20,436 nucleotides of DNA, from the IMG/VR virus record IMGVR_UViG_2690316086_000007, positions 1-20,436 of that record, one strand, 5' to 3'. Source of the stretch: a virus (lineage: Duplodnaviria > Heunggongvirae > Uroviricota > Caudoviricetes). Below the pieces are notes generated by a model that was given only the letters and a program-made list of their open reading frames with translations, had not been told where the DNA came from and ran no database searches. Positions within the stretch are counted from its first letter, which is position 1, and each line of letters begins with the position of its first letter. Position numbers and translations under genes: made by a program. This document shows positions 128 to 12,134 of this stretch, piece after piece.

Positions 128-217
128 CAACGCGCCATCCGTTACTACCTTGAGGCAGACAAAAAGGCTCTGGAAGAACAGGAAGCGAAGGAGGAAGCCT
201 TTTTCGCACAATCCACC

Positions 218-2851
218 GTGGGTAAAAAACTCATGGCATCCCTTGAGGAAGCCGGACAGCGTGAAAAGCTGGCACAAAGCATCATCAGCAAGCGTCAGGC
301 AACAGAACAAGACCCGGTGGCCCGTGCTTTTGCCACACTGAAGGTGCTTCCCGTTTATCTGCGTGAACCTCTGAGCCGCCACCTCTCTTTCCTGCGCAAA
401 AAACAGGAAGCCGATCGCCAGAAAGGCAAAAAGAGCTGGCAGGCTGAACGCTACGCGCGCGGAACCCTGCGCAAAATATTCGAACGTCTGGACCGCACCG
501 ATCACCGCTGGCTGACACCGGGTTATCGCTCCCTTGCCGGACGCGAACGCCTGGACGATTTGCTTTACCTGCCGCAGCTCAACAAACACCAGATACAGAC
601 GCTGGCCACCATGACGGCGGCGATGTTCAGCAGCACCTTCGAAAAACTCTGCGATGGCTTTGGCGCGACTGATGGCGAACTGACCATGGATGTAACGCTG
701 AAGGCGTATCAGATGCTGGCCCGCATGGCGTTACACCTGCACGCCATGCCTCCACATTATGACGCACTGACAACAGACAAAGACCGGAGGAACGAACCGG
801 ACACGGAGCTGCTGCCGGGCGCAATCCTTCGCCTGACCTGTGCGGAATGGTGGAAACGCAAACTGTGGCTGTTACGTTGCGAGTGGAGAGAAGAACAACT
901 CCGCGCCGCCTGTCTGGTTTCCAGAAAAACATCACCCTATCTGAGCCAGGACGCGTTAAGCGAGTTTCGCGCACAGCGCGAGAAAACACGCGATTTCCTG
1001 AAAAGTTTCATGCTGGAAAATGAAGACGGGTTCACGATTGATCTCGAGACAGTGTATTACGCGGGAGTAAGTAACCCGGTTCACCGTAAGGCAGAAATGA
1101 TGGCCACCATGAAGGGGCTGGAACTTCTGGCCGAAGCCCGTGGCGACAGAGCGGTGTTTCTGACTGTCACCTGCCCGTCAAAATACCACGCAACAACGGA
1201 GAACGGTCATCCGAATCCCAAATGGAACGGGGCCACTATGCACGACTCCAGCGATTACCTGGTTAACACGTTTTTTGCGGCGGTCCGCAAAAAACTGAAC
1301 CGCGACGGCCTGCGCTGGTATGGCATCCGCACGGTGGAGCCTCATCATGACGGCACGGTGCACTGGCACATGATGGTTTTTGCTCATCCTGACGAGATTG
1401 TAACCATCGTGTCCCACGTCTGCGATATTGCCATTCAGGAAGACCGCCACGAGCTGGGCAATGACATAACTCCGCGTTTTAAGGCGGAGTACGTCGACGG
1501 CTCAAAAGGCACGCCAACCAGCTACATCGCCACCTACATCGGAAAGAACCTGGACAGCCGCGCCGTGGATGGCATCGACCCGAAAACGGGCAAGCCACGC
1601 GTTGACCACGAAACAGGTAAATCAATGGCCGAGAGCGTGGAGCGCGCCATCGGCTGGGCGCGCCTTCACCGGGTCCGTCAGTTCCAGTTCTTTGGCATCC
1701 CCTCCCGTCAGGTGTGGCGTGAACTGCGCCGCCTTGCCAGCCAGATGGCACGCAATCCGGAAGGCCCGCAACGGCTGAAAGATGATGCAATGGATGCGGT
1801 ACTCGCTGCCGCCGATGCCGGGTGTTTTGCCACCTACATTGAAAAACAGGGTGGCGTGCTTGTTCCACGCAAGGACTACCTGATTCGCACCGCCTACGAC
1901 CTCGCAGATGAGCTGAACGATTACGGCGAACAGAGCGTACAGATTTACGGGATCTGGTCACCACTCATCGGGGAATCCTCCCGTGTGTGCACGCATCCGG
2001 ATAACTGGAAGCTGGTAAGACGTAAACCAGAACCGGAAGACAACGCCCACGAAAATGGTTTTGACCTTCAGGGCGGCCCTGCCGCCCCTTGGACTCGTGG
2101 CAATAACTGTCCCCGTGTACAGGAAACGGACAACAACGGGACAGAACAGCCGGAAGAACGGCCAGCACCGTGGCCGCAGCTTCCTGACGGCGTTGAAGTG
2201 AACGAATGGATGCATTCACTGAAACGGCACGAACGCCGGGCGCTGATGCGTTCGCTTCGTGACAAACAGGCAAAAAACAGCAGCGATGAAATGCAGAACT
2301 GGACACAGAGCCGCAAACAGCCACAGCCTTTGCCTGATAACCACGAGTTACTCGCTAAAGAATGGCGGGAGTCTGCTGAATCTCTCGGCCTGCATATTGG
2401 TGAACAGCAGATGCAGCACCTGTTACGGGGCGGCAGCCTGTACGTTGACGGCAGCATCATTGCACCGCAGGGATTTGAAATTGTACGCAAACCGGATACC
2501 CGCCCGGACAGCCAAATCACGCAGCTCTGGCAGCGCCTGAGCCGTAATCACGGCGTAAGCAGCACGGAGATCCGCCATAACCCGGTCGCCAGCTATCTGG
2601 AACAGCTGGGGGCATCAGACCCCGAAGCCGCCGCACGTCTGGTATCCACACTTCAGCAGGACCAGAACACCATGCCCACCCCCGTTACCGTGCTTTCTGA
2701 CATGCTGCGCGCCATCCGTGACGCAGAGCACGCACAGAGAATCAGTGAAACCACTGAACGCGCCCACCGCAAAGCAGACCTGCTGCGGGGTAGCCTGACC
2801 AGTGGAAACAAAAAAACAGACAGAAACGGGATTCACAAATCCCGTAAATGA
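218..2851 (+). CDS. A: Rolling-circle replication initiation endonuclease, P2 gpA family
   Basis: 877-aa ORF with motifs TVTCPSKYH, VEPHHDGTVHWHMMVF (HUH-type), YIATYIGKNLDS and GWARLHRVRQFQFFGIP, collinear with P2 gpA as recalled. Start is uncertain (GTG 218 or ATG 233), and the frame stays open upstream to the IS junction at 128. Confidence 0.85.
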   Translation: MGKKLMASLEEAGQREKLAQSIISKRQATEQDPVARAFATLKVLPVYLREPLSRHLSFLRKKQEADRQKGKKSWQAERYARGTLRKIFERLDRTDHRWLTPGYRSLAGRERLDDLLYLPQLNKHQIQTLATMTAAMFSSTFEKLCDGFGATDGELTMDVTLKAYQMLARMALHLHAMPPHYDALTTDKDRRNEPDTELLPGAILRLTCAEWWKRKLWLLRCEWREEQLRAACLVSRKTSPYLSQDALSEFRAQREKTRDFLKSFMLENEDGFTIDLETVYYAGVSNPVHRKAEMMATMKGLELLAEARGDRAVFLTVTCPSKYHATTENGHPNPKWNGATMHDSSDYLVNTFFAAVRKKLNRDGLRWYGIRTVEPHHDGTVHWHMMVFAHPDEIVTIVSHVCDIAIQEDRHELGNDITPRFKAEYVDGSKGTPTSYIATYIGKNLDSRAVDGIDPKTGKPRVDHETGKSMAESVERAIGWARLHRVRQFQFFGIPSRQVWRELRRLASQMARNPEGPQRLKDDAMDAVLAAADAGCFATYIEKQGGVLVPRKDYLIRTAYDLADELNDYGEQSVQIYGIWSPLIGESSRVCTHPDNWKLVRRKPEPEDNAHENGFDLQGGPAAPWTRGNNCPRVQETDNNGTEQPEERPAPWPQLPDGVEVNEWMHSLKRHERRALMRSLRDKQAKNSSDEMQNWTQSRKQPQPLPDNHELLAKEWRESAESLGLHIGEQQMQHLLRGGSLYVDGSIIAPQGFEIVRKPDTRPDSQITQLWQRLSRNHGVSSTEIRHNPVASYLEQLGASDPEAAARLVSTLQQDQNTMPTPVTVLSDMLRAIRDAEHAQRISETTERAHRKADLLRGSLTSGNKKTDRNGIHKSRK

Positions 2852-2934
2852 GCAAAAAACGTGCCGCGATATATGAGGCGCGCACAAAACAGGCAAAAGC
2901 GGGATTTAAAAATCCTGTAAACGATTAATTAATC
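2827..2934 (+). promoter_or_regulatory. Palindromic repeat pair plus 12-bp perfect palindrome upstream of parM; candidate operator/centromere-like site
   Basis: CGGGATTcacaAATCCCGtaaa at 2827-2848 (perfect 7-bp arms) and GGGATTTaaaAAATCCtgtaaa at 2901-2921 share a ~21-bp unit 74 bp apart. GATTAATTAATC (2923-2934) is a perfect palindrome just upstream of the parM RBS (AAGGA 2940-2944). Confidence 0.35.
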
Positions 2935-2952
2935 AACATAAGGAAAAGCGAC

Positions 2953-3912
2953 ATGAAAATTTGTATCGACGACGGCTCCACCAACATCAAGCTGGCATGG
3001 GCTGAGAACGGCGAACGCCGCAACGCCATCAGCCCGAACAGCTTCAAGTCGGAATGGTCTGCGCCGTTCGGTGGCACGCAGCCCGCGAACTACATGCTTG
3101 ATGGCGTGCGCTATGGTTTTGATCCGGTCAGCGATCGCTTTGTCCAGACGACCGACACGCAATACCAGTACAGCGATGTGAATGTCATTGCCATTCATCA
3201 CGCACTGGTCAAATCAGGCATCACGCCACAGGAGGTGGATGTGGTTGTCACCCTGCCACTGAGCGAGTATTTCGACACAAACGCACAGCCGGATATGGCC
3301 AACATCAGCCGCAAAAAATCGAACGTTATGCGCCCGGTGGAGTACCAGAACGGCGAAGCATTCACTATCCGTAACGTACGGGTTATGCCTGAATCCATTC
3401 CGGCTGGCTTTAAAGCACTGGCTGACATGAGTCCGTTTGAATCCCTGCTGATTGTGGATTTAGGCGGAACCACACTGGATGTGGCAAAGGTTCAGGGGCA
3501 ACTGGCAGGTATCAGCCAGGTGTTTTGCGATCCACACGTAGGCGTTTCCCTGATGGCCGATGCCGTACTGTCGGTGATGGCCACTAACGGTATGCGTACC
3601 AGTCACCACATCGCCAATACCATTATCGAACATCGCCATGATGAAGCCTGGTTGCGCCAGCACATCCACAATGACGCGCATTACGCCAGCCTGATGGCGG
3701 TTATTCGTGAAAAGGAAGAAACACTGAAACAACGCGTGATCCGCGCGCTGGCGGGCTTTTCGGGTTACGGGCGGGTGATGGTTGTCGGTGGCGGGGCGGA
3801 GATTGTGGCACCCGCTATCCGCGAAGCCTGCGGAGTTAATGCGACTTTCATCGCGGACGGGGTGCCACAGTTTGCTCTGGTTAATGGGCTGTACGCAATG
3901 GACAAGGAGTAA
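2953..3912 (+). CDS. parM: ParM/StbA-family actin-like segregation ATPase
   Basis: 319 aa; collinear similarity to plasmid R1 ParM as recalled (IDDGSTNIKL, ISPNSFK, YSDVNV..HHAL, VMPESIPAG, IDLGGTTLD, FSGY, VGGGAEI, LVNG). RBS AAGGA 8 nt upstream of ATG. Confidence 0.85.
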   Translation: MKICIDDGSTNIKLAWAENGERRNAISPNSFKSEWSAPFGGTQPANYMLDGVRYGFDPVSDRFVQTTDTQYQYSDVNVIAIHHALVKSGITPQEVDVVVTLPLSEYFDTNAQPDMANISRKKSNVMRPVEYQNGEAFTIRNVRVMPESIPAGFKALADMSPFESLLIVDLGGTTLDVAKVQGQLAGISQVFCDPHVGVSLMADAVLSVMATNGMRTSHHIANTIIEHRHDEAWLRQHIHNDAHYASLMAVIREKEETLKQRVIRALAGFSGYGRVMVVGGGAEIVAPAIREACGVNATFIADGVPQFALVNGLYAMDKE

Positions 3913-3916
3913 ACCA

Positions 3917-4228
3917 ATGACGACACCAACCAGACGGATAAGTTTCTATCTGAAGCCCGCCGCCGTCAAGAACGAAGGCGAAGCATGCGCCTGGCTGGAC
4001 AGCCTTACACCAGAAGCCCGCAAAAGTGGTCAACGCGTGGCTTTTCTGGCCGGACTGGCACTTATGAAAATTAATCCGGCAGAGGCTTACCGACTGGCTG
4101 CATGGGCTGACGATGAAGCGTTATCCCTGACACAAACCAGGACAGAACGCCCCGCATCACAGCCAGTATCAACCGCACAGATAACCAGTCAGATGGCCGG
4201 AAATATCCGGGCGTTATTTCCTGAATAA
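3917..4228 (+). CDS. parR: ParR/StbB-like partition adaptor (ribbon-helix-helix type)
   Basis: 103 aa from ATG 3917, 4 nt after the parM stop, with GGAG RBS. Similar to R1 ParR as recalled (ISFYLKP.., AFLAGLAL, C-terminal ..RALFPE). The longer ORF from 3782 overlaps parM and is rejected. Confidence 0.7.
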   Translation: MTTPTRRISFYLKPAAVKNEGEACAWLDSLTPEARKSGQRVAFLAGLALMKINPAEAYRLAAWADDEALSLTQTRTERPASQPVSTAQITSQMAGNIRALFPE

Positions 4229-4236
4229 CACAACAT

Positions 4237-4254
4237 CAGGGCGAGTTCGCCCTG
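4237..4254 (+). terminator. GC-rich hairpin immediately after parR (possible terminator, no U-tract)
   Basis: CAGGGCG-agtt-CGCCCTG, a perfect 7-bp stem 9 nt after the parR stop, followed by CTCTCC rather than a T-run. Confidence 0.3.
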
Positions 4255-4291
4255 CTCTCCACCTCAGAACATAAACAAAGAGAACGACTTA

Positions 4292-4675
4292 ATGAGCGAA
4301 ATCAACTATCAGGCATTACGTGAACGTTATTCACCTGTGCCAGTACCGAAATGCCCTATTTGCGGCGAGGAAATGTCAATTCAGCGAATATCTGGAGCAC
4401 AGGTTGTTTATGCCTGCTCCGGTTATGGTGATGATGGAGATTTCAAAATTGGCCGAACTCTTGCCGACGAACATTATGAAAAATCACGCGTAACAGTGTT
4501 GGATGTCGGGAATCCTGAAGTATTGGCGCTACTTGATTGGCTGGAAACCAAAGACAACCGAATCGCTGAACTGGAAAAAATCGCCACTGACTATGCACTT
4601 AAATTACAGAAAGCACAGGACGCATTAAAGTACGCCGCTTTGCTGCATAGCAGGACAGCGCAGCTACAAGACTAA
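4292..4675 (+). CDS. Hypothetical protein with N-terminal Cys motif (CPICGEE..YACSGYG) and C-terminal predicted coiled coil
   Basis: 127-aa ORF with AAGAGA RBS-like sequence 8-9 nt upstream; lower GC than flanking phage genes. I recognise no homolog. Confidence 0.5.
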   Translation: MSEINYQALRERYSPVPVPKCPICGEEMSIQRISGAQVVYACSGYGDDGDFKIGRTLADEHYEKSRVTVLDVGNPEVLALLDWLETKDNRIAELEKIATDYALKLQKAQDALKYAALLHSRTAQLQD

Positions 4676-4766
4676 CTTAAAGCGGAAGATTAATACATGG
4701 TGAGTCGGGGTAATTTGTTTTTATCCCGACAAATAAACAAAAAAAGTGGACTATCTCTGTAGTATC

Positions 4767-5297
4767 TTATTCAGCATCGTCTCGTGCAGTCTGTGCATAC
4801 GTCACAACAACGCCCAATGCATTAGTTTTCTTTTCAACATAGATAATATTGTCATATTCATAGTTACCATACGGATAGCAAATAAGAATATTTTTATGCA
4901 GATCGGGATCATCAACAAACGCTCCGGAACAGCTTCTTGAACTACCGGATGTATACTCATACGGTGCAACATATGGTGATGTTACTCCTGGTAAAAAATA
5001 AGTCACCATCATAAGAGGGATAATCAGGAATATCCCTGTAAGAATGCAAGAGCCAGCATAAACCTTCAGGTATTCCGACAGTCCTTTCCAGCCACTTTGC
5101 TTCACTACCCCCCTCTTCACCAGAAACAAGGAGAAGAAAAAGGACATACCCATACTACACAAGATGTAATAATTGGATATACGCGAATTAAGATATGTAA
5201 TCCTGTAGATATCTGCCCTCCACCAGTAAAAGAGGAAAATAATCCCTAGCACTGAAACAGTCATGCAAATCAAATAAGGATATGAATCTTTCTTCAT
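4767..5297 (-). CDS. Hypothetical integral membrane protein (3 predicted TM helices plus ~70-aa C-terminal domain), AT-rich cargo gene
   Basis: 176-aa ORF. Hydrophobic segments YLICMTVSVLGIIFLFYWW, YYILCSMGMSFFFSLFLV and SCILTGIFLIIPLMMVTYFL. Markedly AT-rich, with codon usage unlike the surrounding phage genes. Weak RBS. Confidence 0.5.
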   Translation of the reverse strand: MKKDSYPYLICMTVSVLGIIFLFYWWRADIYRITYLNSRISNYYILCSMGMSFFFSLFLVKRGVVKQSGWKGLSEYLKVYAGSCILTGIFLIIPLMMVTYFLPGVTSPYVAPYEYTSGSSRSCSGAFVDDPDLHKNILICYPYGNYEYDNIIYVEKKTNALGVVVTYAQTARDDAE

Positions 5298-5340
5298 GTC
5301 TTGCGCTCATTAAAATTTCCCTGCTACGAACAAATTTACC

Positions 5341-5826
5341 ATCCGTTTTTTGCGCAGAAAACAGCACGATGCACACTGCACGATAGTGCACAAATTTGCA
5401 CAATTTTTTTGAACGACTTTTTACCCTTCCGGCCCGCATGGCGGCTGGATCCGTCAAGGATCCGTGCGTGCACAAAAAAACGCGTTTTTTCTGCGCGCAG
5501 GTGACGGGGGAACAGCCCGCGTTTCAGGGGGTAAATAGCATTCCCTGAACGATGTCGCAGAGATACAACAGAATGGCTGTATTTCTCACGCTGAGCGTGA
5601 AAAAGACGTGAGGGCTTTTGATTTATGGGGTGAAAGGTAAGGCCGTCAAAATCGCACTGAGACGGCGAGAACATGCAGTCAACGCGGTGGGATTGCGTAA
5701 GAGTCTGACTGTCGATGGTGGCGATAAACTGGAAGGCGTCGTGAAATTATCTGACTGATACAGGAGCTGGAGAGTCGGGGCATAAATTTTTTATGCCCCG
5801 GCGAAGCAGCAGACAAGCGAAGCGCG
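5341..5826. other. Non-coding region between cargo slot and portal gene; expected location of the cos site and packaging signals by P2 synteny (exact cos not identified)
   Basis: No convincing ORF. Dense in direct and inverted repeats (TGCACA array 5364-5403; GGATCCGT x2 at 5447-5465; AAAAAACGCGTTTTTT palindrome 5474-5490; 11-bp-stem hairpin 5776-5800). In P2 the cos lies between old and Q. Confidence 0.4.
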
Positions 5827-6873
5827 TCAGGATGTGGGCTGGGTGTCTAACAGTGCGTAAGGGTTAAAGCGGATCACCTCTTCGCCAAGCCAGTCATTGA
5901 TGTGCTTCATGGCCTCCATGACGGGCATCAGCTCGTTAATTGCGTAAACCCGCGCGGCCTTCTCCACATCACCAAACGCACTTTTTTCGCCCGGCATCGC
6001 CCCCATCAGTTGCGGCGGAACGCGGTGCGCAGCCAGCACATCATCACGGGATGCCGCCTTAACATTCATGAACTCATCCTTTGCGGTGATCTGCTGGAAC
6101 GGCAAAATTTGCACCCCCTCTTTGCCCCCGTTGGGAGCATGGATGAGCACGTTTTTAAACGCACCACCACCACGCGCACCCTGTAACGTTTCTTTCAGGG
6201 AGTCCATGCTTTCGCGGTTTACCTGCGCTGCACCGATGTAGATGATGCACCCGGCGTGGGATCCATTGTCGTAATACAGTTTTCTGAACATGTCCGCCGA
6301 ATGAGACAGGCTGGCCGAGAGTAATGCGCCAAGATATTCCGGCATGCCGTAAATTTCCTGGTTAATGTCCGGATTCATCAGGTGGCACACTTTGCCAGGG
6401 CGAAACTGAAACGCGTCCTTGCCATCCTGCACATACCACCATGATTCAAGATCGCTTCCGCGTCGCATGTATTTCGCCAGTGCGTGCCGTAATTTAAGCG
6501 GTTCGCCGAGCATATTGCTTCGAAGCTCAAGGAATGCGTTACCGAACACAAACCAGTCCAGCGCCAGCGCCGAGAAATCCTGCCGGGAAAGCAGCGGGTG
6601 CGGGATGTAGCAACCGAGTAATACATTGCGCTTAAAGTAAAGCGCAGACTGATGCCAGGACGTTTGCCGGGCAGCTCTTGCCAGACCGTACCAGTCCACC
6701 GGGGTTTCATACCACCGCCCGTTATCAGCACAGTACATATTGTCCAGCAGGTCATGCCCGGTCAGGCGATAAGGACCATCAAATGTGAATGCACTGAGCG
6801 ATGATTCTTTCCTGAGCGCATCAGCGAGATCAATGCGTGAACTCATGCGCACTTTTTTATTTTTTCTGCTCAT
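5827..6873 (-). CDS. Q: Portal protein, P2 gpQ-like
   Basis: 348-aa ORF immediately downstream of and translationally coupled to the terminase gene (minus-strand TGATG overlap at 6871-6875); position and size match P2 Q. Confidence 0.8.
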   Translation of the reverse strand: MSRKNKKVRMSSRIDLADALRKESSLSAFTFDGPYRLTGHDLLDNMYCADNGRWYETPVDWYGLARAARQTSWHQSALYFKRNVLLGCYIPHPLLSRQDFSALALDWFVFGNAFLELRSNMLGEPLKLRHALAKYMRRGSDLESWWYVQDGKDAFQFRPGKVCHLMNPDINQEIYGMPEYLGALLSASLSHSADMFRKLYYDNGSHAGCIIYIGAAQVNRESMDSLKETLQGARGGGAFKNVLIHAPNGGKEGVQILPFQQITAKDEFMNVKAASRDDVLAAHRVPPQLMGAMPGEKSAFGDVEKAARVYAINELMPVMEAMKHINDWLGEEVIRFNPYALLDTQPTS

Positions 6874-8624
6874 CAGAACTCCATAACCGTGAAACGCTCG
6901 TTTTCTCCTTCGCCGCCAATCGGTTCGTTAATGACAGCAAGCATGGTTGCCCACGCAAGGTCGCCGTGGCTGATCCCCCTCGCGCGATCCGTTTCGTAAG
7001 TGATAAAGCCGCCCGGTGTTTTCACCTTACGCACGGCGTTAAAGGCCGCGACCAGCTCGCGTTCGGCGCGATCGTATTCCCACCGCCCGGCACGCATTAT
7101 TTGCAGCATTTTCAGTACCAGCGACCGTTTTGATGACAGCGTGAAGGTGTACGGAATAGCAGCAGGGAAAAACCGTTTCACTATCTGATAAACAGCCTCC
7201 CCGTTCCCGCCCGTCACATCAATGCCGATGTGTTCCACGTTGTAGCGATACGTGAACTCTTCAATGACTCTGGCCTGTTCTTCAAACTCCAGCCCCTGAA
7301 CGCGTCGCGTCTCCACCGTTCGAAAACGGCCACCAGGAACAGCCGGAGGAACCACCACGGACACAGCGCCGCTGTCGCCGTTGCCACTGCTGCCGTTTGC
7401 GTCATACCCAATCCATACCGGACGATTCCCCATCGGTCGGGGAGCAAAAGGTTTCCAGTCTTTCCAGTCGTCGTATCCGTCAACACCGCAGCCAATCAGG
7501 ATATTCAGGTTAAATGCCGATTCCCCTTCGCGAACAAACTCACACATATAGAGATTGAGGAACTCGTCTTCGGTGTTTTCATCACGGATTTCGTCAATAT
7601 CGGTGTGTTTCCAGCCGTGATTAACCACATCTTCCAGCGTGACAATTTGTCGCCACGTCCGGTCAGGGCAGATAAGCCCGTTATGCAGCGTTTTCCAGTC
7701 CACAGAAAAACGCTGGCGTTTATGCGAGGCCTTTTTCTCGTTCCAGCGGTCGCCGTTCCAGTAGGCGTATGCCTCGTGCGTTTCGGTGGATGGCGTGGAG
7801 AAGTAGGTGCGCCGCAGTCCGCTGAGGGTTGCCATAGCGCCAGCTACCTTGCGCAGTTCAGCAAAGCGACTGACCCAGAAAAATTCATCAAAATAAAAAT
7901 TGCCCGTATAGGACTGTGCCGACGCAGCAGAAGTGCCGAGAAAATGCAGCTCTGCGCCGTTGGAGAGGATGATTTTATCGCCCCCTTTCAGCTCCACATC
8001 AACTTCAGCCGCGGCCTTCTGAATAATGCTTTTAAACTGGAACGCCTGACGACGCGACGCAGACAAAAAAATCTGGTTACGCTGGTAAGGTTGCGCCACA
8101 TCGTCACGCAGCGCCATCAGCAGAGCTTCCTGTGCAAAATACCAGGTCGCCCCAATCTGTCGGGATTTCAGGATCATCCTGTTACGTATCCCGGCTTCCC
8201 TGCAAAGGGTCAGGGAATCAAACCAGCCCCGCTGATGCCACTCCAGCCTGCTGATGATTTTTTCCCGCAGTGCGGCAATCTGTTCCGGCGTGAAATGATT
8301 TTTGAGTTTTTTCGCCCGGCCTTTCTTTCCTGTGACCGTCGCATCCGGCTGGCCATCATGCAGTTTTTTAAGCTGCCGGGTCAGCAGGTCTATTTCCTTA
8401 AAGTCACCGCCTGTTTTATTCTGTTTTTCAGTAAGCTGGATGAGGCGCGCATCGATGGACTGCGTGACACGCTGCACGGGTGGCGTTTCATCCCACTGGT
8501 CGCGTTTTTTCCACGCATAAATCGTGTTCGGGTTTATTCCCATCAGACGTGATATTTCTGCGGGCGGATAACCCTGCCAGTAAAGTTGCCGCGCACGCTG
8601 GCGCACAAAAGCGTCCTGAATCAT
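6873..8624 (-). CDS. P: Terminase large (ATPase) subunit, P2 gpP-like
   Basis: 583 aa; N-terminal HTH-like segment (PPAEISRLMGINPNTIYAWKK), Walker-A-like ILKSRQIGAT, size and position as in P2 P. Confidence 0.88.
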   Translation of the reverse strand: MIQDAFVRQRARQLYWQGYPPAEISRLMGINPNTIYAWKKRDQWDETPPVQRVTQSIDARLIQLTEKQNKTGGDFKEIDLLTRQLKKLHDGQPDATVTGKKGRAKKLKNHFTPEQIAALREKIISRLEWHQRGWFDSLTLCREAGIRNRMILKSRQIGATWYFAQEALLMALRDDVAQPYQRNQIFLSASRRQAFQFKSIIQKAAAEVDVELKGGDKIILSNGAELHFLGTSAASAQSYTGNFYFDEFFWVSRFAELRKVAGAMATLSGLRRTYFSTPSTETHEAYAYWNGDRWNEKKASHKRQRFSVDWKTLHNGLICPDRTWRQIVTLEDVVNHGWKHTDIDEIRDENTEDEFLNLYMCEFVREGESAFNLNILIGCGVDGYDDWKDWKPFAPRPMGNRPVWIGYDANGSSGNGDSGAVSVVVPPAVPGGRFRTVETRRVQGLEFEEQARVIEEFTYRYNVEHIGIDVTGGNGEAVYQIVKRFFPAAIPYTFTLSSKRSLVLKMLQIMRAGRWEYDRAERELVAAFNAVRKVKTPGGFITYETDRARGISHGDLAWATMLAVINEPIGGEGENERFTVMEF

Positions 8625-8778
8625 TGCTCCCCCTGAGTAATTACAGGAAGATTACCCGCGCGCGAAACTGTTCTCCTTAACCCCCTGTTCTGGCCGTTTT
8701 CTTACAACAAAAGCCCTTTGTATCAGCCTGTTACGCTTTGCCATCATGACTGAAGAACCAGTCAGAGGGGCAAAAACT
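8625..8778. promoter_or_regulatory. Divergent intergenic region between P (minus) and O (plus); expected late promoters
   Basis: 154 bp between divergent start codons. Contains ACA-N12-TGT dyad at 8704-8721; no clean TGT-N12-ACA (Ogr-type) match found. Confidence 0.4.
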
Positions 8779-9615
8779 ATGGCTAATGAAAAAAAGACAT
8801 CCCGCAAAAAGTTTCGCGTGGCTGTCTCCGGATCAACTGTTGATGGCCGCGAAATCAGCCCGGTACATCTGCGTGAAGCCGCCGAGAACTTCAACCCGGA
8901 TGTTTACGCTGCCCGCGTGAACGTTGAGCACTATCTCTCGCCATGCCCGTCAAGCGAATTTTCCGCAATGGGCGATGTCACCGCGCTAAGTACGGAAGAT
9001 ATTACGGAAGGCCCGCTGGCCGGACGTACTGCGCTGTATGCAGAAATCGAACCGACCGAGCGCATGAAGCAGCTTGTCGCTGACGGCAAGAAAATCTATT
9101 CCAGTATCGAACTGCACCCGCAGTTCTCCGTTAACGGGCGTGCCTATCTGGTCGGGCTGGCGATGACCGACACCCCGGCAAGCCTGGGCACTGAGCGCCT
9201 GAAATTCACGGCACAGCAGCGTCAGGCGGTGATGACGTTCAACAGTATCCAGGGTGAAGCACCGCTTATCTCCGAAGCCATCGAGTCTGAAATCATCGAA
9301 ATGGCAGAACAACGCCAGGAAGAAGGCACCCAGTGGTTTAACCGCGTAATGGGGATTATTGGTCGTGGCCGCAAAGCGGATGACGCCAGTTTCTCCCGTA
9401 TTCAGGAAGCGGTGGAAGGCGTTGCAACGTCACAGGCCGACATTATCGACCGTTTTAATGTGCTGGAAACCCGCCATCAGCAGGACAGCCAGAAAATCAC
9501 TTTACTGACCACAGAGCTGGCAGCACTGAAGGAAAAACTGCGCACGCAGGACGGCGATCCGCAGAATCGGTTCACCGCAACGGGCGCAGCCTCCGACCAG
9601 CTGGCTGACTTCTGA
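8779..9615 (+). CDS. O: Capsid scaffolding protein, P2 gpO-like
   Basis: Start ATG 8779 with GAGGGG RBS; MANEKKTSRKKFRVAVSGSTVDGREISPVHL..NPDVYAARVNVEHY parallels the P2 O N-terminus as recalled. Confidence 0.85.
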   Translation: MANEKKTSRKKFRVAVSGSTVDGREISPVHLREAAENFNPDVYAARVNVEHYLSPCPSSEFSAMGDVTALSTEDITEGPLAGRTALYAEIEPTERMKQLVADGKKIYSSIELHPQFSVNGRAYLVGLAMTDTPASLGTERLKFTAQQRQAVMTFNSIQGEAPLISEAIESEIIEMAEQRQEEGTQWFNRVMGIIGRGRKADDASFSRIQEAVEGVATSQADIIDRFNVLETRHQQDSQKITLLTTELAALKEKLRTQDGDPQNRFTATGAASDQLADF

Positions 9616-9638
9616 TAAGACAAAGGAGCAAATTTTTT

Positions 9639-10691
9639 ATGAATCTGGTGATGTCAGATATTACCCGCAACAAGCTGGGTTGCTATATGGCGCAGCAGGC
9701 GTCGCTTAACAATATCCCGGTTTCCGCACTGGTATCGCGATTTACCGTGGAACCCTCGGTACAGCAGCGTTTTGAAAACGCCTCAAAGGAAAGCACCGAA
9801 TTTACAAAAAGAATTAACGTGATCGGCGTGACCGACCAGAAAGGCGAAAAAATCCTCCTGGATACCACCGGGCCGATTGCGCGCACGAATACCAGTTATG
9901 ACGGCACAAAACGCCGTAACCCGAATAACGTGGTTGATCTGAAAAACCGCAAATACCAGTGCGAACAGGTGAACTACGACACGTTTATTTCGTATCCGCA
10001 GCTTGATGCCTGGTCGGCACACCCTGATTTTCAGTCCCGCATCAGCGCACAGATTGCCCGACAGGTGGCGCTTGACCGCATCATGATCGGTTTCAACGGC
10101 ACGTCTCACGCGGATGAGTCCAACTTCAGCACCAACAAGCTGCTTCAGGACGTTAACGTGGGCTGGCTGGAGCACATCAGAACCGACGCCAGCGAACGCG
10201 TTATGAATGACGTGACGCTGACCTCCCGCAACATGGACAACACCGTGGCGCACGCGGGTAAGTATGCGAACGCTGATGCACTGGTACAGGACGCGCGTTC
10301 ATCCCTGCTGGATGAATGGCACAAGGAAGCTGACGACCTCGTGGTGATTATGGGGCGCAACCTGTTTAACTCGCTGCGTCTGCCCGTGCTGAACAGCATC
10401 AGCGGCCAGAATCCCAATGCGGAATTACTCGCCGGGCAGCTCATCCTGTCATCGCGCACCATTGGCGGGCTGGGCGTGTTCCTTGCGCCGTTCTTCCCGG
10501 ATGCAACGATACTGATCACCTCGTTCAACAACCTGTCGATTTACTGGCAGAAAGGTTCAATGCGTCGCCTGATGAAAGACGAGCCGGAATACAACCGCAT
10601 CGCCACCTACCAGTCCATCAATGACGCTTATGTCGTTGAAGACTATGGCAAGTGCGCGATGGTCACTGGCCTGAAGTTCGCCGACAGCTAA
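9639..10691 (+). CDS. N: Major capsid protein, P2 gpN-like
   Basis: 350 aa; AAGGAG RBS. Motifs FTVEPSV, KYQCEQVNYD, IMIGFNG, LQDVNVGW, DLVVIMGR and NLSIYW are collinear with P2 N as recalled. Confidence 0.9.
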   Translation: MNLVMSDITRNKLGCYMAQQASLNNIPVSALVSRFTVEPSVQQRFENASKESTEFTKRINVIGVTDQKGEKILLDTTGPIARTNTSYDGTKRRNPNNVVDLKNRKYQCEQVNYDTFISYPQLDAWSAHPDFQSRISAQIARQVALDRIMIGFNGTSHADESNFSTNKLLQDVNVGWLEHIRTDASERVMNDVTLTSRNMDNTVAHAGKYANADALVQDARSSLLDEWHKEADDLVVIMGRNLFNSLRLPVLNSISGQNPNAELLAGQLILSSRTIGGLGVFLAPFFPDATILITSFNNLSIYWQKGSMRRLMKDEPEYNRIATYQSINDAYVVEDYGKCAMVTGLKFADS

Positions 10692-10700
10692 TCAACTCAC

Positions 10701-10719
10701 GGCGGGCATCATGCCCGCC
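10701..10719 (+). other. Perfect hairpin between major capsid gene N and M
   Basis: GGCGGGC-atcat-GCCCGCC, 10 nt after the N stop; no T-run follows. Possible mRNA-stabilising or attenuating structure. Confidence 0.3.
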
Positions 10720-10736
10720 AGTAACGGAGAGAACAA

Positions 10737-11537
10737 ATGATTACTCCTGCACAGCAACACTGGCAGAACGTGATGGCACAGCGCGCAGGCCGGGCGAATG
10801 AAGGCGTGGACCACGCCGCGCGTACCGCGCATGAAGAGGTGCTGTATCGTCTGCGTCTGGCACAGGCCCGGCTTAAGGGCGTACAGGCCAGAAGCGCGAA
10901 AGCCGCCATCAAAAAAGAGTTGTTGCCGGATTTTTCCGGCTGGATTGAGGGAACGCTGGAGGCTGACGGCGGGCAGCAGGATGAAGTGATTGCCACGCTG
11001 ATGGTGTGGGCGATTGACTGCGGCGATCTTCCGCTGGCGTTGCGTATTGGTGCGTATGTGGTCCGTCATAACCTCATTATGCCGGATAACTTTGGCCGTA
11101 CTGCTGCCACAGTGCTGACCGAAGAAATCTGCAACCCGGTACTGACGCAGGCCGGGGCGGATGCCGACGCGGATTTGTCCGCCTTTATCGAACCACTGGA
11201 CACCCTCCGGAAGATTGTCACCGACCAGGACATGCCGGACGAAGTACGCGCCAAATTATGCAAGGCGTGCGCCTTTGCCCGTCGTGGTCTGACCGATGCA
11301 GACAACATGGCCTTATCACTGAAGCTGCTGCGCGAAGCGATGCACCTGAACCCGAACGCAGGTGTGAAACGCGAGATTGCAACCCTTTCCCGCGCCCTGA
11401 AAAAAGCCGATTCCGCAGCCGAACCAGAAGACGCCAGCGCACAGCAGGCGCAGGACGAAAGCAGCAAAAGTAAAAAGACAACGCGGAAGCCTGCAACACG
11501 AAAAACCACCGCGACGCAGAAGGCGAAGCGCGGTTAA
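10737..11537 (+). CDS. M: Terminase small (endonuclease) subunit, P2 gpM-like
   Basis: 266 aa, GGAGAG RBS, position after N as in P2; basic Lys/Thr/Arg-rich C-terminal tail. Confidence 0.8.
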   Translation: MITPAQQHWQNVMAQRAGRANEGVDHAARTAHEEVLYRLRLAQARLKGVQARSAKAAIKKELLPDFSGWIEGTLEADGGQQDEVIATLMVWAIDCGDLPLALRIGAYVVRHNLIMPDNFGRTAATVLTEEICNPVLTQAGADADADLSAFIEPLDTLRKIVTDQDMPDEVRAKLCKACAFARRGLTDADNMALSLKLLREAMHLNPNAGVKREIATLSRALKKADSAAEPEDASAQQAQDESSKSKKTTRKPATRKTTATQKAKRG

Positions 11538-11552
11538 CGACTGACCCCGTCA

Positions 11553-11625
11553 GCGGGCGGCGTGCGCGGTGTTCCGGTTTGACTCCGTGACCGTTTACAC
11601 CGCGCACCCACCGCCCGATTTTTTT
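11553..11625 (+). terminator. Structured intrinsic terminator/attenuator between M and L
   Basis: Nested inverted repeats: GTGCGCGGTGT (11562-11572) pairs with ACACCGCGCAC (11597-11607), and GCGGGCGG (11553-11560) with CCGCCCG (11611-11617). A run of seven T follows at 11619-11625. Confidence 0.45.
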
Positions 11626-11639
11626 CAGGAGTGAACCCC

Positions 11640-12134
11640 ATGAGTATGGTTGCCAGAACTGAACCCAGACCCGCAGAGGACGACATCACCGATACCGATG
11701 ATGGCGATACCCGCATTTCAGCGGGTGCATTCTGGCCGGATATTGTGCTGCGCGAGCTGCGTCTGGCGGTACGACTGCCGGGCCGCGTGACCACCTCCCG
11801 CCTGCTGCATACTGCCACCGGGGCTGTGGCACACGTTACCCGCGAGCTGGAAGCATGGCAGCAGGAACAGCAGGCAGCTGGCCATCAGACGCTGGCCGAT
11901 GTTCCGGCACCCGTAATTAACGGAGAAAGCGTCAATCTCTGGCACTGGCGCAATGCTGTTTATACCGCCACGCGCGCCCTGATTCTGGAGCGTTATCGTG
12001 ATGCAGACACAACGGACAAGGGCGACCGCCGGGCGGACGCTCTGGATATACAGACATCGGATTTGTGGCGTGATGTGAGCTGGGCCATCTCTGACATTCT
12101 GTGCCGCCCGCGAATGTTTGCGGAGTTGTGCTGA
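11640..12134 (+). CDS. L: Head completion/stabilisation protein, P2 gpL-like
   Basis: 164 aa from ATG 11640 (CAGGAG RBS 8 nt upstream); position and size as P2 L; stop overlaps the X start (TGATG at 12132-12136). Confidence 0.8.
   Translation: MSMVARTEPRPAEDDITDTDDGDTRISAGAFWPDIVLRELRLAVRLPGRVTTSRLLHTATGAVAHVTRELEAWQQEQQAAGHQTLADVPAPVINGESVNLWHWRNAVYTATRALILERYRDADTTDKGDRRADALDIQTSDLWRDVSWAISDILCRPRMFAELC

Follow-up and report, generated by a model that had tools for sequence, protein, structure and literature searches.

A 3'-truncated Ead/Ea22-family gene, probably left behind by a cassette exchange, in the gpA-gpQ hotspot of a P2-family prophage

The open reading frame (ORF) at positions 4292..4675, + strand, of the window, by which we mean the whole stretch of 20,436 nucleotides that was analysed, is the 5' two-thirds of an Ead/Ea22 accessory gene, truncated through the swap of an adjacent cassette and now probably a decaying remnant. 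We give this reading a probability of about 0.85. With the tail of the gene lost through a neighbouring cassette swap, the ORF is best regarded as an ordinary prophage gene remnant, and not as a new defence sensor. Its novelty is limited: the family, the exact protein, the pseudogene status and the place in the hotspot can already be found in public annotation or in supplementary tables.

The frame starts with an ATG and runs, according to the ORF list, over 127 amino acids plus a stop. Its translation is MSEINYQALRERYSPVPVPKCPICGEEMSIQRISGAQVVYACSGYGDDGDFKIGRTLADEHYEKSRVTVLDVGNPEVLALLDWLETKDNRIAELEKIATDYALKLQKAQDALKYAALLHSRTAQLQD, a 14-kDa acidic product. The motif CPICGEE...YACSGYG, pointed out when the ORF was first described, is indeed present, and the protein contains exactly three cysteines: C21 (4352-4354), C24 (4361-4363) and C42 (4415-4417). 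The ribosome-binding site that had been reported can be read from the sequence as an SD-like AAGAGA at 4278..4283 (+), 8 nt 5' of the ATG, though it is modest, if not weak.

The original prediction recognised no homolog for this protein, a statement contradicted by sequence comparison. The Pfam family PF13935 (Ead_Ea22) matches the 127-aa protein with 99.8 bits, for a gathering cutoff of 27, and an E-value of 2.5e-28; phrog_368 matches it at E 1e-25; a search of 5.8 billion proteins yields 284 homologues, with a top match at E 1e-73, and of those that bear a name almost all are called 'ead/Ea22-like family protein'. Under that same name, the identical 127-aa sequence is found at NCBI (e.g. BCS66529.1), in 45 contigs; NCBIfam has no family assignment for it. 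The match with the PF13935 profile spans positions 1-111 of 139, so that the protein falls short of covering the whole profile, while a relative of 196 amino acids, the representative P0001, covers positions 1-134.

The window is a P88-like prophage (Xuanwuvirus, P2 family). Reading from the left, the replication gene gpA (35-2876, +) is followed by parM (2953..3912, +), identified by PF06406, by PF21523 and by the ParM label in related records, then by a parR-like partition gene (3917..4228, +), whose start is taken from the homologous coding sequences in the related loci L001 and L003. The match of this gene with PF10784 (Plasmid_stab_B) bears out the earlier call of a parR upstream of the ORF. 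On the far side, the right boundary of the hotspot is a gpQ-like portal gene (5827..6873, -; PF04860, portal in related records), next to the large terminase (6873-8624, -). A Rfam scan of 3700-6000 gave only a sub-threshold 'gyrA RNA' match, located on a hairpin at 5768-5821, and no match to a cos sequence of P2 was found.

The interval between gpA and gpQ is a published hotspot for defence genes and other cargo in P2-like phages (PMC9122126; PMC13586616). The ORF does lie in a hypervariable cargo slot, as had been proposed: it stands between gpA and the portal gene, and six different slot contents were seen among relatives. The slot holds four small + strand ORFs in P88, a DUF4760 gene with two others in an ST131 prophage, a reverse-strand membrane protein in Citrobacter phage phiSM, an intact 196-aa Ea22-like gene in L001, and a 174-aa gene together with an intact Ea22-like gene in L002. 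About a quarter of P2-like hotspots contain plasmid-partition genes and other non-defence cargo (Rousset et al. 2022, PMC9122126), and Table S5A of the same study lists the arrangement ParM + ParR + Ead_Ea22 for the gpA-gpQ hotspot: the arrangement found here is thus already catalogued.

The closest relatives of the window protein are 196 amino acids long, and are 93-97% identical to it over its residues 1-124. In the alignment, these relatives run on for about 72 residues (...QTNNFAVSLPDISEYFINDVFQPLRYERDVERAIIKAGGKALWQEK...), and the window protein stops with LQD. The 196-aa ead/Ea22-like proteins, such as UIV03762.1 in CP061244, WP_063120749.1 in NZ_CP110658 and the representative P0001, share the slot of the window copy: in P88-like prophages, their genes come after parM-parR and before the portal gene, in the same orientation as in the window. 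Unlike them, the window copy has no C-terminal domain and ends with LQD, three codons past a breakpoint that is visible at the DNA level. Homology to the full-length locus L001 (CP061244) covers window positions 2801-4662 and 5376-7000, with 97-98% identity; between these two stretches, the 713 bp at 4663-5375 stand in place of 258 bp of L001. The swap removed the last 72 or so codons of the Ea22 gene and 38 bp further downstream, and no other part of the window codes for the C-terminal domain that was lost. The reading frame now ends three foreign codons past the breakpoint. In the Ea22 proteins that have been studied, the specific activity is believed to reside in the C-terminal domain, which is gone from the window copy.

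The same structure has been noticed by automatic annotation. Genome NZ_CP027454 is 99.9% identical to window positions 128-11700, and at this locus RefSeq has a pseudogene described as 'ead/Ea22-like family protein; incomplete; partial in the middle of a contig; missing C-terminus'. The 'missing C-terminus' note of PGAP is attached to the locus in eight complete genomes, NZ_CP027454 and seven others that were sampled, with complete STEC genomes among them.

What took the place of the lost tail is recognisably lambdoid. The replacement segment (4663..5375, no strand assigned), delimited by the break in homology with L001, provides the codons of the final LQD together with the stop. Over 96% of the segment, it aligns at about 77% identity with a stretch found in the lambdoid phages 434, mEp332 and 2B8. 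In phage 434, the counterpart stretch belongs to the exo-xis region, after orf60a, orf63 and a zinc-finger gene; in lambda, the matching place is occupied by ea22. Inside the segment, an ORF of 176 amino acids (4767..5297, -) is convergent with the Ea22 remnant. From MKKDSYPY onward, it is homologous to CPT_434_36, a 'putative membrane protein' of phage 434; its C-terminal half matches phrog_1416, and at least two stretches of it are strongly hydrophobic. Neither Pfam nor PADLOC gave a match for this ORF. It is annotated as the intact WP_000711113.1 in one genome and as 'frameshifted' in others, and its homologues, confined to Enterobacteriaceae, are all named hypothetical.

In a metagenomic contig, L007, the truncated ea22 and the reverse ORF are preceded by another upstream flank, and the ea22 part is 8% diverged. 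From the different flank and the divergence, it follows that the cassette circulates in more than one background. The exchange can be pictured as homologous recombination inside ea22 on the left side, and on the right side as recombination at a short shared TGCAC-rich sequence, at 5376-5412; through these two exchanges, the cassette would have moved between phage types. The arrival of lambdoid DNA of the exo-xis type in a P2-family prophage illustrates cleanly how swapping between gpA and gpQ leaves truncated neighbours behind.

How the remnant would be transcribed is suggested by the sequence around it. A GC-rich hairpin does follow parR, as announced: at 4237..4254 (+), between parR and the Ea22 remnant, the stem CAGGGCG/CGCCCTG forms 7 bp around a loop of 4 nt, with a centroid energy of -13 kcal/mol and a z-score of -2.3 against shuffles. 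The sequence 3' of the hairpin on the + strand is CTCTCCACC. It has no U-tract, and the hairpin is therefore not a canonical intrinsic terminator. A simple consensus scan, which a weak promoter could escape, found no sigma-70-like promoter in 3700-5900 or in 2700-3100. These two results give no support to the idea that the ORF is a separate transcription unit. The genes gpA, parM and parR and ORF 4292-4675 are co-oriented, with successive gaps of 76, 4 and 63 nt, and the remnant is probably transcribed by read-through from gpA and parMR.

We now turn to the protein itself, in which three parts can be delimited: a leader, MSEINYQALRE, formed by residues 1-11 (4292..4324, +) and common to the Ea22 proteins of lambda and 933W; a CCCH-type N-terminal module at residues 13-71 (4328..4504, +), with a putative Zn site, a beta-hairpin and a short helix; and an amphipathic helix or coiled-coil segment at residues 75-124 (4514..4663, +), seen both as a helix in the AlphaFold2 (AF2) model and as a heptad pattern. 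When 1.84 billion cluster representatives were searched exhaustively with residues 1-77 (HMMER), 299 proteins were retrieved at E <= 0.001. In an alignment of 138 representatives, C21 and H61 are present in 138/138, C24 and C42 in 137/138, and P19, G54, D59, Y62 and S65 in 138/138 each; a second alignment (A4) leaves the invariant set unchanged. The invariant residues C21, C24, C42 and H61 define the signature C-x2-C-x17-C-x18-H.

The AF2 model of the full protein, based on an alignment of 33 sequences, has a mean pLDDT of 76. Its elements are a helix at 6-13, a beta-hairpin with strands at 29-34 and 37-41, a helix at 57-65, a strand at 67-70 and a long helix at 75-126, whose block-mean pLDDT is about 74-93. 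The knuckle CPICG is placed before the beta-hairpin, C42 after the second strand, and H61 on the helix that follows. With the heptad register that fits the long helix best, the a and d positions are 73% hydrophobic, versus 39% elsewhere; the C-terminal coiled-coil-like segment that had been suspected is thus supported by both the model and the heptads. Structure prediction had been proposed from the outset as a check. Fold searches returned no significant match, and when the N-domain is modelled alone, the confidence drops to a pLDDT of 60.

As for the metal site, the original guess was a zinc-ribbon-like one. A zinc ribbon is built on two knuckles, and the protein has one CxxC (C21, C24) and, at the second site, the single C42. 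Zinc-ribbon families of Pfam match residues 18-50 at sub-threshold E-values, 0.008-0.14, and Zn_ribbon_recom reaches E < 0.001 in only 5/131 relatives; a sequence search of the PDB brought up only two chance zinc-knuckle matches, at E around 0.9. What survives of the guess is a conserved candidate site with H61 as fourth ligand, and what has to be given up is the classical zinc ribbon. The Cys2-Cys-His pattern is, judging from sequence, typical of a structural zinc site, and the module probably binds one zinc ion in that capacity; the fourth ligand is likely His61, Asp59 being a less likely one. We lean, with some reserve, towards the view that a zinc-binding domain not described before, the C-x2-C-x17-C-x18-H module, defines a separate Ea22 subfamily. 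No mention of a Cys2-Cys-His module was found in the Ea22 papers examined, nor any link between Ea22 and zinc in the literature searched. The one mildly new point of this analysis is that the module would mark a large Ead/Ea22 subfamily distinct from the lambda and Stx-phage proteins that have been studied.

Among readings that compete with that of a gene remnant, a chance ORF without coding history has nothing but its small size to recommend it. Homology, at E 1e-73 to named proteins and at E 2.5e-28 to a curated family, refutes this reading, and its probability is negligible. The role originally imagined, that of a small and novel zinc-ribbon protein which would sense or regulate the anti-phage defence of the hotspot, with a transcription unit of its own, draws some credit from its surroundings, since defence systems abound between gpA and gpQ in P2-like prophages (PMC9122126, PMC13586616), and from the conservation of the Cys/His motif. 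However, the protein is not novel, in view of PF13935, of its homologues and of the exact NCBI entry, and the studied members of the family are modulators of the decision between lysis and lysogeny (PMC7093339). Searched against PADLOC-DB v2, the ORF matches 0 families at E <= 10, and its two neighbouring ORFs match none at E <= 1. No effector partner accompanies it, the sole neighbour being the small membrane protein brought by the insertion on the opposite strand, and a promoter or terminator signature is missing; partition genes and other non-defence cargo are, as said above, what roughly a quarter of P2-like hotspots carry (PMC9122126). With, in addition, a frameshift in a major lineage, discussed below, we consider this role highly improbable.

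A more serious competitor sees in the 127-aa protein a short form of Ea22 that still works, made of the CCCH module and the coiled coil and kept by selection; such a protein might act alone through its N-module, or form mixed oligomers with full-length Ea22 paralogues of co-resident or incoming lambdoid phages, and in this way alter their choice between lysis and lysogeny. The truncated junction is present in 74/5426 complete E. coli genomes, which include O121, O103 and O45 STEC, ETEC, APEC and commensals. The 127-aa frame is open in 9/10 of the truncated alleles examined, among them the 8%-diverged one that L007 has in another context, and pN/pS among truncated alleles is 0.15-0.26. To this can be added that many prophage paralogues share 65-97% identity with the ORF in its N-module and at the start of the coiled coil, that some genomes have up to 5 copies, and that the split ea22 of 933W is a precedent (PMC8614690). 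However, the differences between truncated alleles coincide with variants found in full-length genes, so that a low pN/pS can be inherited through recombination instead of having arisen after the truncation. The window protein also has a D74N substitution at a position that is invariant in 131 relatives, the three foreign tail codons vary freely between truncated alleles (LQD vs LKY), and in lambda the C-terminal domain is not enough by itself to give the Ea22 phenotype (PMC10834534). The most abundant derivative is, moreover, a broken one: in the O103:H2 strain FWSEC0007, the loss of 1 nt from a G-run at codon 74 gives a 111-aa product in which the coiled coil is destroyed. This frameshifted product occurs in at least 1000 contigs (e.g. 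O45:H2), versus 45 and 128 for the two listed intact 127-aa forms, and at least 19 of the best 30 complete-genome matches have the length of 1470 nt expected of the frameshift group. A 1-nt frameshift in a large O103/O45 STEC sublineage argues for decay of the remnant. Selection for a short isoform is thus unlikely, and the likeliest account of ORF 4292-4675 is that cassette exchange at the hotspot produced it as a by-product, which is now decaying. That the remnant, if expressed, forms mixed oligomers with the full-length Ea22 of co-resident or incoming lambdoid phages, Stx phages included, and disturbs their lysis-lysogeny decision is, in our opinion, a long shot; if true, it would amount to interference of one prophage against another by a dominant-negative fragment.

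The studied Ea22 proteins, those of lambda and of the Stx phages 933W, Phi24B and P27, are tetrameric, pro-lysogenic products of the exo-xis region (PMC7093339, PMC10834534): in both lambda and Phi24B, Ea22 tips the balance towards lysogeny (PMC7093339), and ea22 is non-essential in lambda (PMC10695390). This effect is the one phenotype tested so far, and the two proteins that show it have no CCCH module. Lambda and 933W Ea22 belong to the same Pfam family as the window ORF, and have a mosaic build with swappable parts (PMC7093339, PMC10834534). Yet lambda Ea22 (NP_040612) and 933W Ea22 (NP_049469) have only two things in common with the ORF, the leader, in which a BLASTP comparison with 933W finds 11/12 residues identical, and the 'P-x-VLALLDE' start of the coiled coil. 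Lambda Ea22 has nothing between the leader and the coiled coil, and thus no N-module; that of 933W is unrelated and does not show the CxxC...C...H signature. A 63-aa segment described in Stx-phage Ea22 (PMC10834534) had been a candidate for the Cys module, and was ruled out by translating the 933W ea22 gene. The leader and central coiled coil by which characterised Ea22 proteins are recognised can both be found in the ORF, in which the leader and 'VLALLD' align and the helix and heptads are predicted. The folded C-terminal domain, dimeric in lambda and usually ending in R/K-G-E in the lambda and Stx-phage proteins, is absent from the ORF, which ends at residue 127. The settings also differ: the lambda and Stx-phage genes are in the exo-xis operon of lambdoid phages, transcribed from pL, and the window ORF has parR on one side and the portal gene on the other, in a P2-family prophage.

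Given that lambda has no N-module, that 933W has an unrelated one, and that both genes sit in a pL setting, the Ea22 phenotype is not simply transferable to the ORF. The label 'pro-lysogenic Ea22' should be applied with caution to CCCH-type proteins, which have only the leader and the coiled coil in common with the studied ones. Closer to the ORF are ES18 gp41, ST64B Sb32 and an Ea22-like protein of phage D6, which share the Cys2-Cys-His module and the start of the coiled coil, with 49-56% identity over 89-99% of the query; unlike the window protein, they are full-length, with C-terminal regions of their own, and are found in other phage backbones. The literature yielded no tested function for these three proteins.

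The sharing of leader and coiled coil between proteins with differing N-modules depicts the Ea22 family as a mosaic, composed of a leader, an optional N-module, a coiled coil and a variable C-terminal domain. The CCCH-type relatives illustrate the last point: the 131 examined are mostly 140 to 360 aa long, and their C-terminal parts vary, with a DUF551 domain in 6 and a dATP/dGTP pyrophosphohydrolase in 1. Elsewhere, fusions between the anti-OLD protein Oad2 and an EaD/Ea22 protein have been noted (2026 preprint, 10.64898/2026.07.10.737580). Leader and coiled coil could then be an oligomerising scaffold on which exchangeable C-terminal effector domains are displayed, and the helix of the window protein would be the start of such an oligomerising coiled coil, in a copy that has lost its effector. 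The nearest parallel to this loss is in 933W, where ea22 is split by the insertion of a gene (PMC8614690). Both this gene and the window copy have been separated from their C-terminal domain by an insertion event; the two cases differ in the fate of the detached part, which is absent from the window, whereas in 933W it is said to persist as the separate gene L0065 (PMC8614690).

The actual cargo brought in by the 713-bp segment at 4663-5375 is the reverse-strand membrane-protein gene at 4767-5297. Its product has no match in Pfam or PADLOC, and its match to phrog_1416 is confined to the C-terminal half. The PGAP annotation labels the gene 'frameshifted' in most genomes, and treats it as intact, under WP_000711113.1, in O103:H2 FWSEC0007. 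In the window, a start at the ATG at 5297 yields a complete homologue, so this copy is probably intact. The gene is a candidate moron, possibly with a role in superinfection exclusion.

The right-hand recombination junction coincides with a TGCAC-rich stretch at 5370-5412, in which the motif occurs four times in about 32 nucleotides (tgcacactgcacgatagtgcacaaatttgcac) and is followed by a run of T. This stretch is common to the P88-like prophages and to L007, a metagenomic contig with a truncated ea22, and is found in part in phage 434: it could serve the reverse gene as operator or promoter, or else be a hotspot of recombination. The interval 5376-5826, adjoining the portal gene, is where cos lies in P2-like phages; a search with an approximate P2 cos sequence did not find it. 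Overlapping this interval is a 112-aa ORF on the reverse strand, 5336-5674, for which Pfam, PHROGs and PADLOC gave no match; it is annotated as a gene in none of the related records and is probably spurious. A strong hairpin at 5768-5821 (gtcggggcataaattttttatgccccggc), immediately downstream of the portal gene stop, is most likely the terminator of the late Q-P operon; its match to the Rfam 'gyrA RNA' family is sub-threshold, at 22 bits for a gathering score of 45.

The replication gene gpA spans 35-2876, and comparison with L001, a related prophage locus, reveals one additional A in the poly-A run at 2804-2810. This extra base shifts the frame, leaving about 21 last codons out of frame and ending the open frame at 2851 instead of 2876. 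In the prophage of NZ_CP027454, which is 99.9% identical, RefSeq also labels gpA 'frameshifted'. The prophage of the window may be replication-defective, or else the C-terminal tail of gpA may be dispensable. In the Ea22 remnant (4292-4675), most alleles have GGGGAT (Asp) at the G-run of codon 74 (4511-4513), where the window has GGGAAT (Asn). The O103/O45 STEC group has GGG-AT at this site, and the resulting frameshift gives a 111-aa product; in NZ_CP031908, the G-run lies near position 592. This 111-aa form is the most abundant one in public data, and the G-run is a mutational hotspot.

Another decayed allele, P0010, is a Shigella boydii Ea22-like protein of 158 aa, in which an internal segment, CSVMVMMEISKLAELLLTNIMKKSRV, resembles the product of a compensated double frameshift spanning the C42-H61 region. 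This allele suggests that Ea22-like genes in the slot between parR and the portal gene have been degraded repeatedly. Carriers of ead/Ea22-like genes of the CCCH type (those with the C21-C24-C42-H61 module) include E. coli plasmids of about 100-120 kb (matches H24-H41 and H118-H126), which we suspect, from their size, to be phage-plasmids. In some O157:H7 chromosomes, one 140-nt match overlaps two genes of this kind. The family is therefore found in prophages, both lambdoid and P2-family, as well as on large plasmids.
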